Positions 1 through 32,653 of a DNA stretch of 45,709 nucleotides are shown here, in pieces. The notes beneath the pieces were generated by a model that was given only the letters and a program-made list of their open reading frames with translations, had not been told where the DNA came from and did no database searches. The stretch's first letter is position 1; the number at the start of each line of letters is the position of its first letter. This DNA is from an uncultured Candidatus Saccharibacteria bacterium (lineage in GTDB: Bacteria > Patescibacteriota > Minisyncoccia > 2-02-FULL-40-12 > GWA2-44-9), in assembly GCA_964587505.1 (NCBI GenBank), contig CAZPLD010000001.1, forward strand, positions 1 through 45,709. Reading direction: 5' to 3'. The translations under genes were made by a program, and so were the position numbers.

Positions 1-96
1 CGCCGCCTTAAGTTCGTGGAACTCTTTTCTGGCAAGGTCTCCGGCCTCTTCGGCGTTAAGAGTTACGCAATCTTTAAAAACTTTGTGAGCATTCAT
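1..96 (-). CDS. Hypothetical protein, N-terminal fragment (continues past left edge)
   Basis: ATG at 96..94 reads MNAHKVFKDCVTLNAEEAGDLARKEFHELKAA to the window edge. It has its own promoter at 156..128. Too short for the ORF track. Confidence 0.3.
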   Translation of the reverse strand, partial: MNAHKVFKDCVTLNAEEAGDLARKEFHELKAA

Positions 97-6702: not shown

Positions 6703-8853
6703 ATGACAGACCTCTCCCTATCTATCGAAAAATTAAAAAACGTGGGACCAAGAAATATCCCCCGCCTCGCCAAACTCGGCGTAAAAACGGTAAGAAATCT
6801 TTTGTGGCATTTTCCCGTCCGCTATGAGGATTACAGCAAGGTTGTAACAATCTCCGAAATTGAACCCGGTCAAAAAGTAAACATCCAAGGGGAAATTTTA
6901 AAAATGAGCAACCGGATGATATTCCCCAGAAGAATGTCAATAACCAATGCTCTGGTCGGAGACGAGACCGGAGCTGTTAAGGTGGTCTGGTTCAACCAGC
7001 CATTCATCGCAAATTCCCTGAAAGAAGGAACGTTGGTCAGTTTAGCCGGAAAGGCCAATCTGGATAAACATGGTTTGTATCTTTCCAGCCCGACTTACGA
7101 AAAAATAAACGATATTGAATTTAAAAACTACAATTTAACTCATACCGGCGGTCTGATACCTATCTATCCCGAAACGGAAGGGGTTACTTCAAAATACCTG
7201 CGTTTTCTTATCAAACCAATTTTAAAGGACTTGGAAGTTCCGGACCCGCTACCGGCAGGGGTGATTAAAAAATATAACCTTCCACCTTTAAGCGAAGCTC
7301 TGACTAAGATTCACTACCCTACCAGTAATCAGGAGGCGGAAACCGCAAAAGAACGCCTCGCTTTCGACGACCTGCTTCTTTTCCAGTTAAAAGCCCTTCT
7401 TGAAAGAAGAAAATTAAACCAATTGAAATCGGTCCGAATTAAATTTGATAAGGACCTCATCCAAAGTTTTATCTCTCGCCTGCCATTTGAACTGACAAAA
7501 GACCAGAAAATAGCAGCTTGGGAAATTTTAAAAGACCTTGAAAAAACCTACCCCATGAACCGGCTTATGGAAGGAGATGTCGGAAGCGGCAAAACCGTTG
7601 TTGCTCTTATGGGAGCCGTTCAGGTTGCCAAGATAGGCTATCAGTCGGTATTTATGGCTCCGACAGAGGTCTTGGCCAACCAGCATTTCCGAACAATGTC
7701 CGAATTATTAGGCAATAACTTTCTGAACATCGGACTCCTGACCGGTTCCGAGGCCAGATTTAACAAAGAAAGAGTGGAGAAAACAAATCTGAAAAATAAA
7801 ATAGCCCGAGGCGAGGTGGATATTCTTATTGGAACTCATGCTGTGATACAAAAAGATATTCATTTTAAAAATCTTGCCTTCGTTGTTTTAGACGAACAAC
7901 ACAGGTTTGGAGTGGCCCAGCGAGCTGCATTGGTTAAGCCTTCGTCCCGAGCTCAGGCCGAGGGGAACAAAGAAATTGTACCCCACCTCTTATCTATGAC
8001 CGCTACCCCTATCCCCCGCACCCTTGCCCTGACTATCTACGGCGACTTGGATATTTCAATAATCAAAGAAAAACCCAAAAACAGGCAGAAAATTATTACA
8101 AAAGTTGTTTCTCCTTCCCAAAGGAAAGCTGCTTACAAATTTCTGCGTGACGAGGTGGTCTCTGGCCGGCAAGTTTTTGTCATTTGTCCGAGAATCGAGC
8201 TTGCCGACCCAACAAAAGAAATTAAGGGTAAGAACGGCCAGTCCAAAATGAATGTGCTTTGGGCTGAAGCTAAAGCGGTTCAGGAAGAATATAAAAAATT
8301 ATCAGAAGAGATATTTCCCGACCTTAAAGTGGCAATGCTCCATGGAAAAATGAAGCCGAATGAAAAAATTGAGACGATGCAAAAGTTCAAAGACAAAAAA
8401 TATGGGATTTTGGTTTCAACTTCAGTTGTTGAGGTGGGAGTAGATATTCAAAACGCCACCATTATGATGATAGAAAACTCCGAAAGATTCGGACTTGCTC
8501 AACTGCATCAATTCAGAGGTCGGGTCGGAAGAGGAGAACATCAGTCATACTGTCTTCTATTTTCTTCAACGGCAGACAAAAATATAAATCAAAGATTAAA
8601 AGCTCTGGTGGAGTGCGATGATGGATTTGAACTGGCAGAAAAAGACATGACCATCCGCGGACCCGGAGAATTCTTCGGCGTTAAGCAGTCCGGTCTTCCC
8701 GATTTGGCCATGGCTTCTCTTGCCAACGTAGAGCTAATCAAAAAAGCCCGGCTTGAGGCCCGGCTTTTGCTTAAAGAAAATTCCAACTTGAGCAATCATC
8801 CGCTTTTGAAAGAAAAACTGGACAGCTTCCAGCGTCTTACTCATTTCGAATAA
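6703..8853 (+). CDS. recG: ATP-dependent DNA helicase RecG
   Basis: OB wedge region. Helicase motifs GDVGSGKT, DEQHRFG, SMTATPIPRT, QLHQFRGRVGRG. Start moved to the ATG at 6703 because 6631..6702 overlaps the upstream terminator. Confidence 0.9.
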   Translation: MTDLSLSIEKLKNVGPRNIPRLAKLGVKTVRNLLWHFPVRYEDYSKVVTISEIEPGQKVNIQGEILKMSNRMIFPRRMSITNALVGDETGAVKVVWFNQPFIANSLKEGTLVSLAGKANLDKHGLYLSSPTYEKINDIEFKNYNLTHTGGLIPIYPETEGVTSKYLRFLIKPILKDLEVPDPLPAGVIKKYNLPPLSEALTKIHYPTSNQEAETAKERLAFDDLLLFQLKALLERRKLNQLKSVRIKFDKDLIQSFISRLPFELTKDQKIAAWEILKDLEKTYPMNRLMEGDVGSGKTVVALMGAVQVAKIGYQSVFMAPTEVLANQHFRTMSELLGNNFLNIGLLTGSEARFNKERVEKTNLKNKIARGEVDILIGTHAVIQKDIHFKNLAFVVLDEQHRFGVAQRAALVKPSSRAQAEGNKEIVPHLLSMTATPIPRTLALTIYGDLDISIIKEKPKNRQKIITKVVSPSQRKAAYKFLRDEVVSGRQVFVICPRIELADPTKEIKGKNGQSKMNVLWAEAKAVQEEYKKLSEEIFPDLKVAMLHGKMKPNEKIETMQKFKDKKYGILVSTSVVEVGVDIQNATIMMIENSERFGLAQLHQFRGRVGRGEHQSYCLLFSSTADKNINQRLKALVECDDGFELAEKDMTIRGPGEFFGVKQSGLPDLAMASLANVELIKKARLEARLLLKENSNLSNHPLLKEKLDSFQRLTHFE

Positions 8854-29367: not shown

Positions 29368-30900
29368 CTATGCTAGCTCGCTTAACATTTTTTCGTTCAT
29401 GCGCAGATTTACCGCTTCGGCGACATGTTCCTCTTTGATTGATTCCGAGCCGTCCAAATCAGCGATGGTACGAGCTAATTTCTTGGTCTTATGATATGCC
29501 CTCAACGACTGGTTCTTTGAGTTAATGGCCTGTTTGAGCAGATTCTCGGCTCCTTTGTCCAAAACACAGTATTTATCTATGTTTTTATAGTCAATCTCGG
29601 AATTAGCCAAAAGGATTGTATTCTTGAATCTTGATAGCTGAACTTCTTTGGCTTTATTGATTTGAGCTTTGATCTCCGCCATTTTTATCTCTTTTGGGGG
29701 ATATACTTGGCCAACTGTTTCGCGCGGAACATTTATCTGGATATCTATCCTGTCCAGCAACGGCCCTGATACTTTCTTTCTGTATTTTAAAATTTGAGTT
29801 GGGGAGCAATAGCAAACGCCCTTTTCCTCGCCAAAATTACCGCAGGGACAAGCATTCATTGCGGCCACTAAAGTGAAGTTGGCCGGCAAAATAACCGAAC
29901 TCGAAGCTCTGGAGACAGAGATTGTGCCTTCTTCTAGTGGTTGTCTTAAGCTTTCCAGGACATTTCTAGGAAATTCTGGAAGCTCATCCAGAAATAAAAC
30001 CCCTCTGTGGGCCAAGCTTATCTCTCCCGGTTTTGGCCACGTACCCCCTCCGACCATTGCCGGAGCAGATGTTGTATGGTGCGGACTTCTGAAGGGCCGT
30101 TTGAAAGATAGGGGAGAGTTCTTATAAAGTCCGACTGAACTGTATATCTTGGCCACCTCAATTGCCTCTTCAAAAGACATTTTAGGCAATAATTCCGCAA
30201 GAGCTTTGGCAAGCAATGTCTTACCGGAACCCGGGGGACCTGACATGAGAATATTGTGGGCTCCGGCCGCAGCAATAATAAGGGCCCTTTTGGCTGTTTC
30301 CTGGCCTTTTATAGACAATAGCAGGCCATCATCGGTTTCATCCAAAAGTTGGGACTCCTTCATCCGCTGGCTGGACAATGGCCGTGTGTTATTGAGATGG
30401 TCAAAAACTTCTTTTACATTCTTTGCTCCAACAACATTAAGACCTTGAACTATCTGGGCTTCAGCAAGATTGGAATAGGGGACTACCAGCTCTTTAAAAC
30501 CAAGCTTTTTGGCCAAAATTGCCGAAGCCAAGATGCCATTGGTGTGTTTTAAAGAACCATCCAAAGAAAGCTCGCCAACAAATAGTTTTTTGGAAGAATC
30601 GAACTGAACTTGTTTGGTCTCCATCAGGTAGCCGACGGCAATGGGTAAATCGTAAGAAGGACCTTCTTTTTTGAGGTCAGCCGGAGCCAAATTTATAATA
30701 ATTTTCCTATGTTTCGAGTTAGGTGCCGCAAGTGAGCTGTTTTTGATAGCCGAGGCAATCCTGTCCTTTGACTCTTGGACCGCTTTATCGGGAAGCCCGA
30801 CAATATTAAAAGCATGAATACCGGGAGTGGAGTCAACTTCCACTTCTATGAGCTGGGCATCTATGCCGTTTATTGCTGAAGAAAAAAGTCGTATGGACAA
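29368..30900 (-). CDS. comM: YifB/ComM family Mg-chelatase-like AAA+ ATPase
   Basis: N-terminal Lon-protease-like fold segment. Walker A GPPGSGKT. GVLFLDELPEF. TTG start. Confidence 0.9.
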   Translation of the reverse strand: MSIRLFSSAINGIDAQLIEVEVDSTPGIHAFNIVGLPDKAVQESKDRIASAIKNSSLAAPNSKHRKIIINLAPADLKKEGPSYDLPIAVGYLMETKQVQFDSSKKLFVGELSLDGSLKHTNGILASAILAKKLGFKELVVPYSNLAEAQIVQGLNVVGAKNVKEVFDHLNNTRPLSSQRMKESQLLDETDDGLLLSIKGQETAKRALIIAAAGAHNILMSGPPGSGKTLLAKALAELLPKMSFEEAIEVAKIYSSVGLYKNSPLSFKRPFRSPHHTTSAPAMVGGGTWPKPGEISLAHRGVLFLDELPEFPRNVLESLRQPLEEGTISVSRASSSVILPANFTLVAAMNACPCGNFGEEKGVCYCSPTQILKYRKKVSGPLLDRIDIQINVPRETVGQVYPPKEIKMAEIKAQINKAKEVQLSRFKNTILLANSEIDYKNIDKYCVLDKGAENLLKQAINSKNQSLRAYHKTKKLARTIADLDGSESIKEEHVAEAVNLRMNEKMLSELA

Positions 30901-30927: not shown

Positions 30928-31335
30928 TTAGAATTGCTGTTTACTGTAGGTGCCTTCCTTAATCTGTTTCTTTGTTTTAATTACCTCGTTAAGACGAGCC
31001 TCTAATTCGCTCGCCATGATCAGATTTCTATCCAGATCGGTAGCTTCATGGGCGTTCTCGTCTTCATCTTCCCCGTAATTGGGAACCTTAACTTCGTAAT
31101 CGCCCTTAACCATGGGGTTTTTTTGGGCTATAACATCAAGCTGGGTCCTTAAAGACTTCTCTTCTGCCTCAAGATCCTCATATAATTTTTGTAATTCTTC
31201 CTTCGTCATATTGGTATAAACATAATAACCGTAATCTTTTAATAAAGCAATCAAATTAGATTCGATTGTAGCTGGCTTGGCCAAGAATGAAGCAGGGCTT
31301 AAAAACTTTCTGCGTTTGAACCAAGTTCGAGGCAA
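30928..31335 (-). CDS. DksA/TraR-like coiled-coil protein lacking the C4 zinc finger
   Basis: The coiled-coil region ends ...IKEGTYSKQQF*, where the family normally continues GTYGxCxxCG. The start is uncertain (TTG at 31335 or ATG at Met43). Confidence 0.45.
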   Translation of the reverse strand: MPRTWFKRRKFLSPASFLAKPATIESNLIALLKDYGYYVYTNMTKEELQKLYEDLEAEEKSLRTQLDVIAQKNPMVKGDYEVKVPNYGEDEDENAHEATDLDRNLIMASELEARLNEVIKTKKQIKEGTYSKQQF

Positions 31336-31632
31336 AATTGAGCATTCGACTGAGGCATATTACAATATGGCGAAGGAGAAGCGGAAATTTTAACGATGAA
31401 ATTGGTCAAACCTGAAAGGCATGCCGTAGGCCCGTAACGAAGTGGGGCCAGACATGCGCAAAAGTTTTAAATCAAAAAGGCGTAGAACGCCCCTAATAAA
31501 ATATGTAGTGTGGGCTCTACGCCTTGTATCTGAAAGCCAGTGATCCAATAACAACTCAAATCACCAGCAACAAAGATCTGAACTAATTATATAAAAGTGT
31601 TGGTGACACAGCAAGTGCCAAACTGTGGATAA

Positions 31633-31679
31633 GGTGACACCATTAACTCATGGTGACATTTTCTTGGTGTCACCATTAA
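31633..31679. repeat. GGTGWCACCATTAA direct repeats (core of a GGTGACAC motif cluster)
   Basis: GGTGACACCATTAA at 31633..31646 and GGTGTCACCATTAA at 31666..31679. Related copies at 31602, 31652 and 31776. Confidence 0.6.
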
Positions 31680-31706
31680 AAGTTAGCCAATAATGCCATT
31701 TTATTA

Positions 31707-31739
31707 AACAACCAGCCACTTAGCGGCTGGTTGTTTTTA
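31707..31739. terminator. 11-bp-stem terminator-like hairpin
   Basis: aacaaccagcc-acttagc-ggctggttgtt. The T-run is on the plus strand. It lies 45 nt past the methyltransferase stop on the minus strand. Confidence 0.55.
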
Positions 31740-31783
31740 TTAAATTCTGATAGTGACAACAGGTTGTAAACAGGTGGTGTCAC

Positions 31784-32653
31784 CTATGGAATACGCACAA
31801 CTTCTGGAGAAAATCCAATCTTGTTTTGTATTGACGAGAGGGCTTCTTTGTTTATCTCAATGCCGGTACAATCCCGATTTAGCTGTTTGGCTACTTTCAT
31901 GGTGGTCCCGGATCCCAGAAATGGGTCCAAGATACTATCGCCAGGCCGGGTAAATTTTTGGATAAGCCTGACTGCAATCTCTTCCGGACATTCTGTTGCA
32001 TAATGAGTAAATGCATGATCATCTTTTACCAAGGTTTTTTTTGCAATTTTTGTCATAAAATTAGGTATGGGTAGCCTGTGTTGTAATTCGAACATGGCCC
32101 TAAACAATATCCTTGAACCGGCTAACTTGGGATGGGTTTTGTGGTTCCAAATAGGATTCCAATATAGATCCCTGAGCGCATCTTCAATCAAATCGTGGTT
32201 TTGTGGGTTTAAACCTTGTTTTTGAAACACCAAAACATACTGAAATCGGGTACTGTTCTTTGCTGATGTGTCCAATGAGCCCCTATTTTTGTGAAGATAC
32301 CTGTCCCAGACACCAATGCTTCTAAGGGGGAGCTGGCTGGGCATAGATTTAATCAAGTCATCATGAAAGGGGATATATACAAGACAATCTTTGTCTTTGC
32401 GAAAAAAATCATGAACCCAGATAGCTAAAATACCGCCTTCTTTAAGGGTATGGCAACATCCTTGCCAGACTTTTGATATTGATCTTAAGAATTCTGTATA
32501 ATCTTCAATTGCGCTAAGCTGGCCCCGATCTTGCGAGTATATAACCTCATTCCAATAGGGCGGACCGGAAAGAACCAAGTCAAACTGATTTGCCGGCAAA
32601 AAAGACTGCATTTTAACGGCATCTCCAATGAAAACTTTAGTTTCTGTATTCAT
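31784..32653 (-). CDS. Beta-class N4/N6 DNA methyltransferase (N6_N4_Mtase type)
   Basis: Motif IV-like SGPPYW near the N-terminus and the AdoMet motif DPFLGSGTT near the C-terminus (beta-class order). Confidence 0.85.
   Translation of the reverse strand: MNTETKVFIGDAVKMQSFLPANQFDLVLSGPPYWNEVIYSQDRGQLSAIEDYTEFLRSISKVWQGCCHTLKEGGILAIWVHDFFRKDKDCLVYIPFHDDLIKSMPSQLPLRSIGVWDRYLHKNRGSLDTSAKNSTRFQYVLVFQKQGLNPQNHDLIEDALRDLYWNPIWNHKTHPKLAGSRILFRAMFELQHRLPIPNFMTKIAKKTLVKDDHAFTHYATECPEEIAVRLIQKFTRPGDSILDPFLGSGTTMKVAKQLNRDCTGIEINKEALSSIQNKIGFSPEVVRIP

Follow-up and report, generated by a model that had tools for sequence, protein, structure and literature searches.

What is encoded in a gap of some 450 bp that is packed with short repeats and lies beside a solitary DNA methyltransferase gene? 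The question is raised by positions 31336-31783 of the 45,709-nt contig CAZPLD010000001.1 (the whole stretch analysed, called the window below), part of a genome of ~725 kb and 42% G+C whose genus-level relatives carry the deposited labels of Candidatus Yanofskybacteria metagenome-assembled genomes from Rifle groundwater. The initial annotation described GGTGWCAC repeats and stable hairpins in this gap, and offered as explanations an iteron or operator array, a cluster of methylase targets, a plus-strand small RNA (sRNA) and the remnant of a lost partner or controller gene. The observation is confirmed and its interpretation partly supported, in that the operator array alone survives, with changes. 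The gap consists of two unrelated parts, 31311-31474 on the plus strand and 31468-31784 on the minus strand. For the second part we propose, at about an even chance of being right, that a promoter controlled by an array of 8-bp TGGTGACA boxes drives a structured leader or small RNA ahead of a dksA-like gene and comM, and that the same boxes mark ComEA-type genes.

Results

A conserved block with an array of asymmetric boxes

A search of 40 relatives split the gap. Its bases 1-135 (31336-31470) match many sites in the same and in other genomes, whereas bases 132-448 have one match in each of five same-genus genomes, at 72-82% identity. In these five genomes the block 31467-31783 is conserved and the adjoining DNA is unrelated; the same-genus block always lies between comM and orf453, a proline-rich membrane-protein gene. 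Comparison with relatives had been suggested as a way to find a gene occupying this space. The block is indeed kept, and where the methyltransferase is absent orf453 ends directly at the boxes. In agreement with the initial reading, the gap holds no credible open reading frame (ORF), the longest having at most 54 codons; small ORFs of 30-54 aa in the RNA region were rejected because relatives differ there by hairpin insertions of 14 and 80 nt.

The repeats themselves were found as described: GGTGWCAC at 31602, 31633, 31666 and 31776, GGTGACAT at 31652, AGTGACA at 31752, and the 14-nt direct repeat GGTGWCACCATTAA at 31633-31646 and 31666-31679. The last copy (31776-31784) touches the methyltransferase ORF (31784-32653, minus strand) at its stop codon. 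GGTGWCAC has seven strand matches in the window against 0.72 expected, a number reached in none of 100 shuffles, and all seven fall in the gap; the whole genome of 725 kb has 15. The copies at 31633, 31666 and 31776 match both strands (GGTGWCACC), and this palindrome had been taken for a form of the repeat unit. However, 205 GTGACA cores from 30 homologous loci yield an asymmetric unit, WTGGTGACAY, with T in 76% of sites at position -2, G in 87% at -1, and nothing conserved on the 3' side.

In the window, motif search places four proximal boxes between 31602 and 31674 (31602-31609, 31633-31641, 31652-31659, 31666-31674), and motif search with alignment places a distal pair within 31747-31784, namely AGTGACA at 31752 and GGTGTCACC at 31776-31784. 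In relatives the distal pair encloses a conserved TGTGCATAACCTGTTG segment, which resembles a DnaA box with one mismatch. The homologous loci follow the same plan: 28 of the 30 have 4-13 boxes, in a proximal cluster at -55 to -100 and a distal one at -130 to -210, and the terminator of the upstream gene lies between the two. Boxes of the same orientation are spaced with peaks at 8 and at 11-12 bp, and one antisense box keeps its place in the promoter spacer across loci. Within the genus the boxes are invariant and the spacers between them vary; a different family of the order has TGTCATCA as its box sequence, and the DnaA-type box next to them (see below) is unchanged.

Boxes that keep their sequence although number, spacing and orientation drift behave as protein-binding sites, not as paired RNA, and a joint change of box sequences to TGTCATCA is what co-evolution of a site and its protein would produce. 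Short and conserved, the boxes keep fixed distances from the -35 and -10 hexamers and evolve as units. The operator half of the initial proposal survives, in the altered form of boxes around and inside a minus-strand promoter in the 28 loci. Alternatively, the boxes might act through nucleic-acid structure, as sense-then-antisense palindromes that form DNA cruciforms or RNA hairpins; the RNA concerned would be a plus-strand transcript, the comEA-type mRNA or the 3' untranslated region of the upstream gene. Arrays typically run from sense boxes to antisense boxes, some of them lie inside transcribed coding regions, and the distal pair of the window can form a GUGACA...UGUCAC hairpin right after the stop codon. 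Against this, box number, spacing and orientation vary between close relatives around an invariant, asymmetric 8-nt unit, one box is fixed in the promoter spacer, and the boxes straddle both terminator and promoter and hence are not all on one transcript. We consider action through structure unlikely.

One other kind of repeat array was also compared. A TIGR (tandem interspaced guide RNA) array consists of two alternating repeats of 8-12 nt with 9-nt spacers, in 5-15 units, beside a Tas protein with a Nop domain (PMC12045711). The present array was rejected as a TIGR array: it has one box type in both orientations, gaps of 1-6 nt and promoter hexamers inside the array. Pfam detected no Nop domain in the neighbour proteins. 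No paper matched the box sequence in a literature search.

Promoter and DnaA-type box

A predicted sigma-70-type promoter lies on the minus strand at 31586-31614, with a -35 hexamer TTGCTG (31609-31614), a 17-nt spacer and a -10 hexamer TATAAT (31586-31591); a TGTCACC box sits in the spacer. A simple promoter scanner missed it because TTGCTG matches the consensus at only three of six positions. Among same-genus relatives the -10 hexamer is invariant and TTGnnn is present in all, 17-18 nt upstream of it, and the other loci have a promoter of the form TTGnnn-16..18-TAnnnT at the equivalent place. Nine nucleotides upstream of the -35 hexamer is a perfect DnaA-type box TTATCCACA (31624-31632, minus strand), invariant in the genus; TTATC[CA]AC[AT] occurs at the equivalent position next to the -35 hexamer in 29 of the 30 loci.

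Given a perfect DnaA box, a second DnaA-like box in the distal cluster, and dense short repeats in both orientations, the array could be an iteron, a centromere or an origin-like site, the other half of the initial proposal; arrays also occur at two chromosomal loci, one of them within a gene, a frequent location of parS sites. Against this, the box positions are fixed relative to -35 and -10, one DnaA box is perfect and the other weak, a Pfam scan of the neighbours revealed no adjacent rep or par gene, and the genome has no cluster of three or more DnaA boxes within 400 bp. Genes to the left and right share one orientation and no turning point of the cumulative GC skew falls at 31.6 kb, so that oriC was rejected, and we regard the whole class of such sites as improbable here.

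DnaA-type boxes occur in two further settings in this genome. Copies of TTATCCACA at C31:439, C63:1156, C9:12962, C35:4067 and C11:17827 (C-numbers denote contigs) stand immediately upstream of -35-like hexamers or a few nucleotides before start codons, and by position the box may recur in this genome as an element of promoters or 5' ends. At six sites (C28:6590, C29:1017, C31:2980, C31:4799, C31:5522 and C59:2683) TTATCCACA is followed by the palindrome (A)TAACGACCTTCAAGGTCGTTA(T). Some of these are inside ORFs and two flank the ORF C31:4800-5516, whose product, judged by eye, resembles an IS200/REP-associated tyrosine transposase (RAYT; REP, repetitive extragenic palindrome). From their arrangement these sites, a third of the genome's 'DnaA boxes', look like a REP/RAYT-type system.

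A structured RNA downstream of the promoter

Covariance models and covariation define a conserved structured RNA of ~115 nt at 31468-31584, on the minus strand. It begins with a 5' tail, AG.UCUUU, followed by helix P1 (31536-31568; GCUGGUGAU...AUCACUGGC), for which pair counts give an invariant base of G-C, C-G and U.G. An optional hairpin P2 of the GNRA type, CCUC-GCAA-GAGG in relatives, is absent from the window RNA. At the end is a terminator hairpin (31474-31525) of 11+4 bp with a 2-nt bulge, a ~19-nt loop containing CACAC, and U5. The stem of this hairpin had been noticed initially as 'aggcgtaga...tctacgcct', and its arms 31477-31486 and 31516-31525 are complementary at 10 of 10 positions. 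The hairpin at 31525-31477 followed by T5 at 31478-31474 has the form of an intrinsic terminator, with a loop that is atypically large (19-50 nt). Conservation among the genus relatives ends right after the T-run. The terminator hairpin is the most sequence-conserved part of the RNA; sequence conservation extends to its loop and is also seen in the 5' tail.

The initial annotation had considered a small RNA on the plus strand; the structure places it on the other one. The third pair of P1 is U.G in all 30 sequences, and other U.G and G.U pairs of this helix alternate with G-C and A-U among relatives. Such alternations are impossible on the plus strand, where the pairs become C.A, and therefore the RNA strand is minus. 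The GCAA tetraloop is likewise of the GNRA type on the minus strand only, and the minus-strand fold has -38.9 kcal/mol (z -4.8) versus -28.3 for the plus strand. In the alignment of 30 sequences, which was fitted to the covariance model and so favours the structure, 94.7% of the cells are paired as compared to 33-47% in slid controls. Double changes occur in 26 of the 33 pairs, and all 15 pairs of the terminator hairpin have compensatory changes.

A covariance model built from six genus sequences (R1) has full-length single matches in 20 of the 62 genomes of the family. The second model (R2) likewise matches at full length; its hits fall in 30 of the order's 105 genomes, one in each, and represent 13 of the 49 genera. 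In addition, genus G017 has the same boxes and promoter and an RNA of like design, too divergent for the model, and thus the distribution of the RNA is underestimated. Rfam 15 has no match at gathering score in the window except tRNAs; for 31200-31900 the best sub-threshold matches are terminator look-alikes (15-26 bits versus thresholds of 50-100), and 19 homologous loci have none at E<=0.01. By its covariation, this is a well-supported structured RNA family absent from Rfam.

Known housekeeping RNAs were considered and set aside. The transfer-messenger RNA is encoded elsewhere, on contig C50, as is the RNase P RNA (C16:6505-6884). The 6S RNA model RF00013 has no match in the genome at E<=10, and the fold here is three hairpins with a free 5' tail, with no rod of ~180 nt. 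Neither model of the signal recognition particle (SRP) RNA, RF00169 or RF01854, matches in genus or family, no GGTCCGGAAGGAAGCAGC-like site resembling SRP RNA was found with up to four mismatches, and P1 has a 3-nt bulge, unlike the symmetric and asymmetric loops of SRP RNA. The Ffh M domain (PF02978) is absent from all 62 family genomes, 42 of which are at least 90% complete, and no SRP54-type GTPase motif was found among the ORFs of the genome under study. In the absence of both an SRP RNA match and Ffh from the family, the RNA described here is not a divergent SRP RNA; by these searches, the SRP pathway seems to be missing from the whole family.

Two loci from different genera, L018 (G003) and L027 (G009), have a hairpin of ~80 nt (GCCCCGCTCTTGAAAAGCAC...GTGCTTTTCAAGGGCGGGG) as an insertion behind the RNA's 5' tail, which suggests a small mobile hairpin element.

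A second array inside ComEA-type genes

The paired motif GGTGACA-N1-8-GGTGACA occurs in 55 of the 62 family genomes, with approximately none for the reversed control, and many of these genomes have a second array besides the comM-side locus. In all eight cases sampled the second array is inside a long ORF. Three of these ORFs, from the genome under study (C31:2866-2969) and from L062 and L066, were scanned with Pfam and have an HHH_3 (ComEA-type) domain and/or a lamin-tail domain (LTD); the array ORFs of L063-L065, L067 and L068 resemble the C31 protein by their N-terminal sequence. The boxes use two or three reading frames (seven arrays tabulated), encoding MSP/VSP, NVT, MVT and GD. Each array has 8-17 boxes, versus ~1 under resampling of synonymous codons (maximum 3-6 in 1000 trials), and hence the nucleotide motif itself is under selection within the linkers of ComEA-type proteins. 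Since comM and comEA are genes of DNA uptake and recombination in better-studied bacteria, their sharing of the boxes suggests that these mark a small competence-linked regulon.

Genome-wide, TGGTGACA outside the comM-side locus is always within a long ORF. GGTGACA has 41 copies in 725 kb, of which 13 are in the two array loci, whereas ~69 are expected by our own estimate from base composition. A DNA uptake sequence (DUS/USS), which needs hundreds to thousands of copies, was therefore rejected. Outside the two loci 28 copies remain against the same rough compositional expectation, and stray sites may be avoided genome-wide. A scan for triple boxes over all genomes returned mainly unrelated coding repeats.

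Downstream genes and the role of the RNA

In all genera the gene order is the orf453 homologue, boxes with promoter, the RNA, a DksA/TraR-family gene, and comM. In the window the dksA/TraR-like gene occupies 30928-31209 (minus strand), encoding 93 aa from M43, as judged from the sequence and relatives, and comM, identified by Pfam, occupies 29368-30900 (minus strand). The true start of the dksA-like gene is probably M43, with its ATG at 31209: the listed ORF (30928-31335, minus strand) has 135 aa, the 42 N-terminal residues of which coincide with a conserved promoter region, and a promoter-like TTGCTT-17-TATTAT is found at 31222-31250. The window protein has no C4 zinc finger, whereas homologues in other genera, encoded directly downstream of the RNA, keep it. 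Several genera have only 18-40 nt from the U-run to the next start codon, and one genome has ~30 nt leading directly to comM; so short a distance favours a leader RNA with a read-through terminator.

Our model for the locus is as follows. A DNA-binding protein would recognize a flexible array of asymmetric 8-bp TGGTGACA boxes, upstream of and within the promoter spacer, at a sigma-70 promoter whose -35 hexamer is abutted by the putative DnaA-type box TTATCCACA. The promoter would transcribe the ~115-nt RNA on the minus strand, from 31584 to 31468, ending in the hairpin and U-run. We infer that this RNA is the leader of the dksA-like/comM pair, most transcripts stopping at the hairpin and accumulating as a small RNA, and that conditional read-through, perhaps via the conserved hairpin loop, would feed dksA-like and comM. 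The same box-binding factor could tie the comM-side and ComEA-type loci into a mini-regulon of DNA uptake and recombination. More speculatively, the RNA could be a riboswitch-like or protein-binding attenuator of a new kind; its position and terminator fit such an element. No conserved alternative pairing was seen by eye in the alignment.

Several observations weigh against this model. The hairpin with its U5-6 resembles an efficient terminator, and no conserved antiterminator pairing was seen by eye in the alignment of 30 sequences. In five of the six same-genus genomes dksA-like has been lost and 430-1000 bp of unrelated DNA lie between the RNA and comM; that the RNA is kept there fits an independent sRNA better. 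In 16 of 21 loci the ATG of dksA-like is preceded, at 1-15 nt, by TTGnnn-17-TAnnnT, by a test that is lax in AT-rich DNA. The arrays inside genes cannot be classical operators of their own promoters. Finally, no candidate box-binding protein was found. An OmpR/PhoB-type binder was rejected, as an OmpR-type query found only two receiver-only proteins in the genome; WhiA (motif GACAC) was rejected as absent from the genus; and none of the neighbours (orf453, DksA-like, ComM) is a reader of DNA sequence.

Alternatively, the RNA could be a small RNA acting in trans, from a separate gene that has a regulated promoter and an efficient terminator of its own; dksA-like and comM would then be mere neighbours, transcribed from promoters of their own that are partly of the leaderless type. 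The RNA and its promoter outlast both the loss of dksA-like and the insertion of unrelated DNA, the loop and 5' tail are conserved like seed or protein-binding regions, and the hexamers before dksA-like could serve these genes. This alternative remains serious because of those promoter-like hexamers in AT-rich gaps and of the antiterminator pairing not seen. On the other hand, strict same-strand synteny across the order, with gaps down to 18-40 nt, is what a cis element usually shows, AT-rich spacers make the promoter test a weak one, and a target scan for 11-mer complementarity gave no standout, with 92 matches versus 29-103 in shuffles. We therefore treat an independent sRNA as possible, while rather doubting it, and retain the leader model.

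Several genera share a second conserved element, 20-130 nt downstream of the RNA in L017, L018, L021, L023 and L027 (...CCAAGAGTGAAACGATTGGCTTACAAAAACTTAACCCCGCACCAAACCCGCCCCCTTTCTGAATGGCGGTCAGCGGAAAAGATTGGTGCGGGGTT + T-run). It precedes dksA-like, is closed by a long helix, has no Rfam match and is absent from the window.

The methyltransferase and the upstream gene

The methyltransferase gene beside the gap is present in only three of the 30 homologous loci (the window, G002 and G005), and is thus an insertion, the block being independent of it; in the other loci the membrane-protein gene orf453, whose product has no Pfam match, ends at the first box. Judging from this distribution, the methyltransferase would have come in later, between orf453 and the distal boxes, and would have no part in the module. 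It is a beta-class N6/N4 DNA methyltransferase with 65-79% amino acid identity among its three genomes, and no restriction partner is present.

The contact between the last box and the methyltransferase stop codon is what speaks for a functional tie between the two, be it as a methylase target cluster, as the operator of a controller or through a lost restriction gene. However, the boxes, the promoter and the RNA are present in all 30 loci, the block is downstream of the methyltransferase, beyond a terminator-like hairpin, and no ORF remnant of a partner or controller gene was found. With linkage so inconstant and the block on the wrong side, a control element of a restriction-modification system (C-box) and a methylase target cluster were both rejected, and we hold any tie to the methyltransferase to be very improbable.

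The hairpin in question, described initially as a terminator with a plus-strand T-run, is present between the distal and proximal boxes at 31706-31745 as a bidirectional terminator-like structure, with 15-nt arms (31706-31720 and 31722-31736, 93% complementary) followed by the plus-strand T-run. Relatives carry a hairpin of unrelated sequence at the place of 31706-31736, so that structure alone is kept. By its place it probably terminates the minus-strand gene upstream, which is orf453 in general and the methyltransferase here.

A dispersed leader element in the left half

The remaining part of the gap is an orphan copy, detected with blastn and RNAalifold, of a dispersed structured leader element of ~160 nt (31311-31474, plus strand). 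The element has at least 14 copies in the genome at 66-92% identity (blastn), and more in relatives across the order; such similar copies at unrelated sites are the mark of a dispersed repeat. Canonical copies end in ...GGAGGGCG..CAAGTTATA-ATG, directly at gene starts, and the genes behind them include rpsT, rpmJ, rpmG, nusA, greA, a glycosyltransferase-like gene and others. Copies are found at C15:~6830-7000(-), C11:11167(+), C16:6426(-), C16:12979(-), C14:16279(-), C58:2881(-), C8:8351(+), C37:3631(+), C24:2412(+) and C10:13162(+). RNAalifold on 14 copies predicts 32 pairs, 20 of them with compensatory changes; Rfam has no match at E<=1. The 3' hairpin of the element sequesters a GGAGG, and the element looks like a genome-wide cis-regulatory or translation-control RNA.

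The copy in the window keeps the fold, and the 'nested stems' reported around 31409-31457, which are present, are its 3' hairpin. It is followed by no start codon or gene and runs head-on into the end of the minus-strand RNA. This copy is an orphan insertion, unrelated to the module of boxes and RNA.

Discussion

Gene regulation has hardly been studied in the Candidate Phyla Radiation, because most of its organisms are known only from metagenomes. DNA uptake is considered a central part of how these reduced cells live. The locus described here provides an RNA family absent from Rfam with a clear genomic address beside comM. The arrays of 8-bp boxes mark only comM-linked and ComEA-type loci and thus offer a handle for finding a regulator of DNA uptake. 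The arrays in ComEA-type genes are, in addition, a clear case of a cis-element array maintained in protein-coding linkers against codon expectation, and a false lead, the control region of an orphan methylase, is removed. A bolder version of the model is that a dedicated factor reads TGGTGACA at two places per genome, at the RNA promoter and inside the ComEA-type genes, as a lineage-specific switch of uptake and recombination. We advance it tentatively and would not bet on it; if true, ultra-small bacteria that rely on scavenged nucleic acids would have a DNA-uptake switch of their own.

Parts of this arrangement have counterparts in known systems. The perfect TTATCCACA 9 nt upstream of the -35 hexamer, order-wide and with similar arrangements at other promoters of the genome, is reminiscent of DnaA-regulated promoters. 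In contrast to these, the box is single and stands outside any origin context, DnaA binding is putative, and several TTATCCACA copies belong to REP-like palindromes. Leader RNAs with intrinsic terminators likewise combine a covarying RNA, on the same strand and before the same gene family, with a hairpin and U-run; unlike riboswitches and attenuators, the RNA has no Rfam match, no antiterminator visible by eye and no ligand clue, and its terminator is the most conserved part. Competence regulons such as those of CRP-S/Sxy and ComK boxes have promoter sites dedicated to them, and the boxes described here likewise mark genes of DNA uptake and processing (comM and comEA-type); however, they do so at only two loci per genome, and with arrays within coding DNA, which those regulons are not known to have.

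For the boxes, two types of operators were compared. The CtsR operator is GGTCAAA, and PhoB/MtrA-type operators contain CTGTCAT or GTCACA. Like the boxes described here, these are short asymmetric sites about one helical turn apart, over or upstream of -35 and -10; however, box sequence and regulon differ, and the genome is without an OmpR-family regulator. The omega repressor, with its WATCACW heptads (pSM19035/inc18), and MetJ, with its 8-bp metboxes, are ribbon-helix-helix (RHH) repressors that bind arrays of short repeats cooperatively. In contrast to theirs, the arrays described here are of mixed spacing (8 and 11-12 bp), chromosomal, order-wide and present also in coding sequence, and neither an RHH gene nor another candidate protein was identified. 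At the same time, the box core (GTGA/TCAC) resembles the omega heptad, and, as in the omega and MetJ arrays, units of 7-8 bp are present in variable number, direct as well as inverted, often contiguous (the 8-bp spacing here), and overlapping the promoter.

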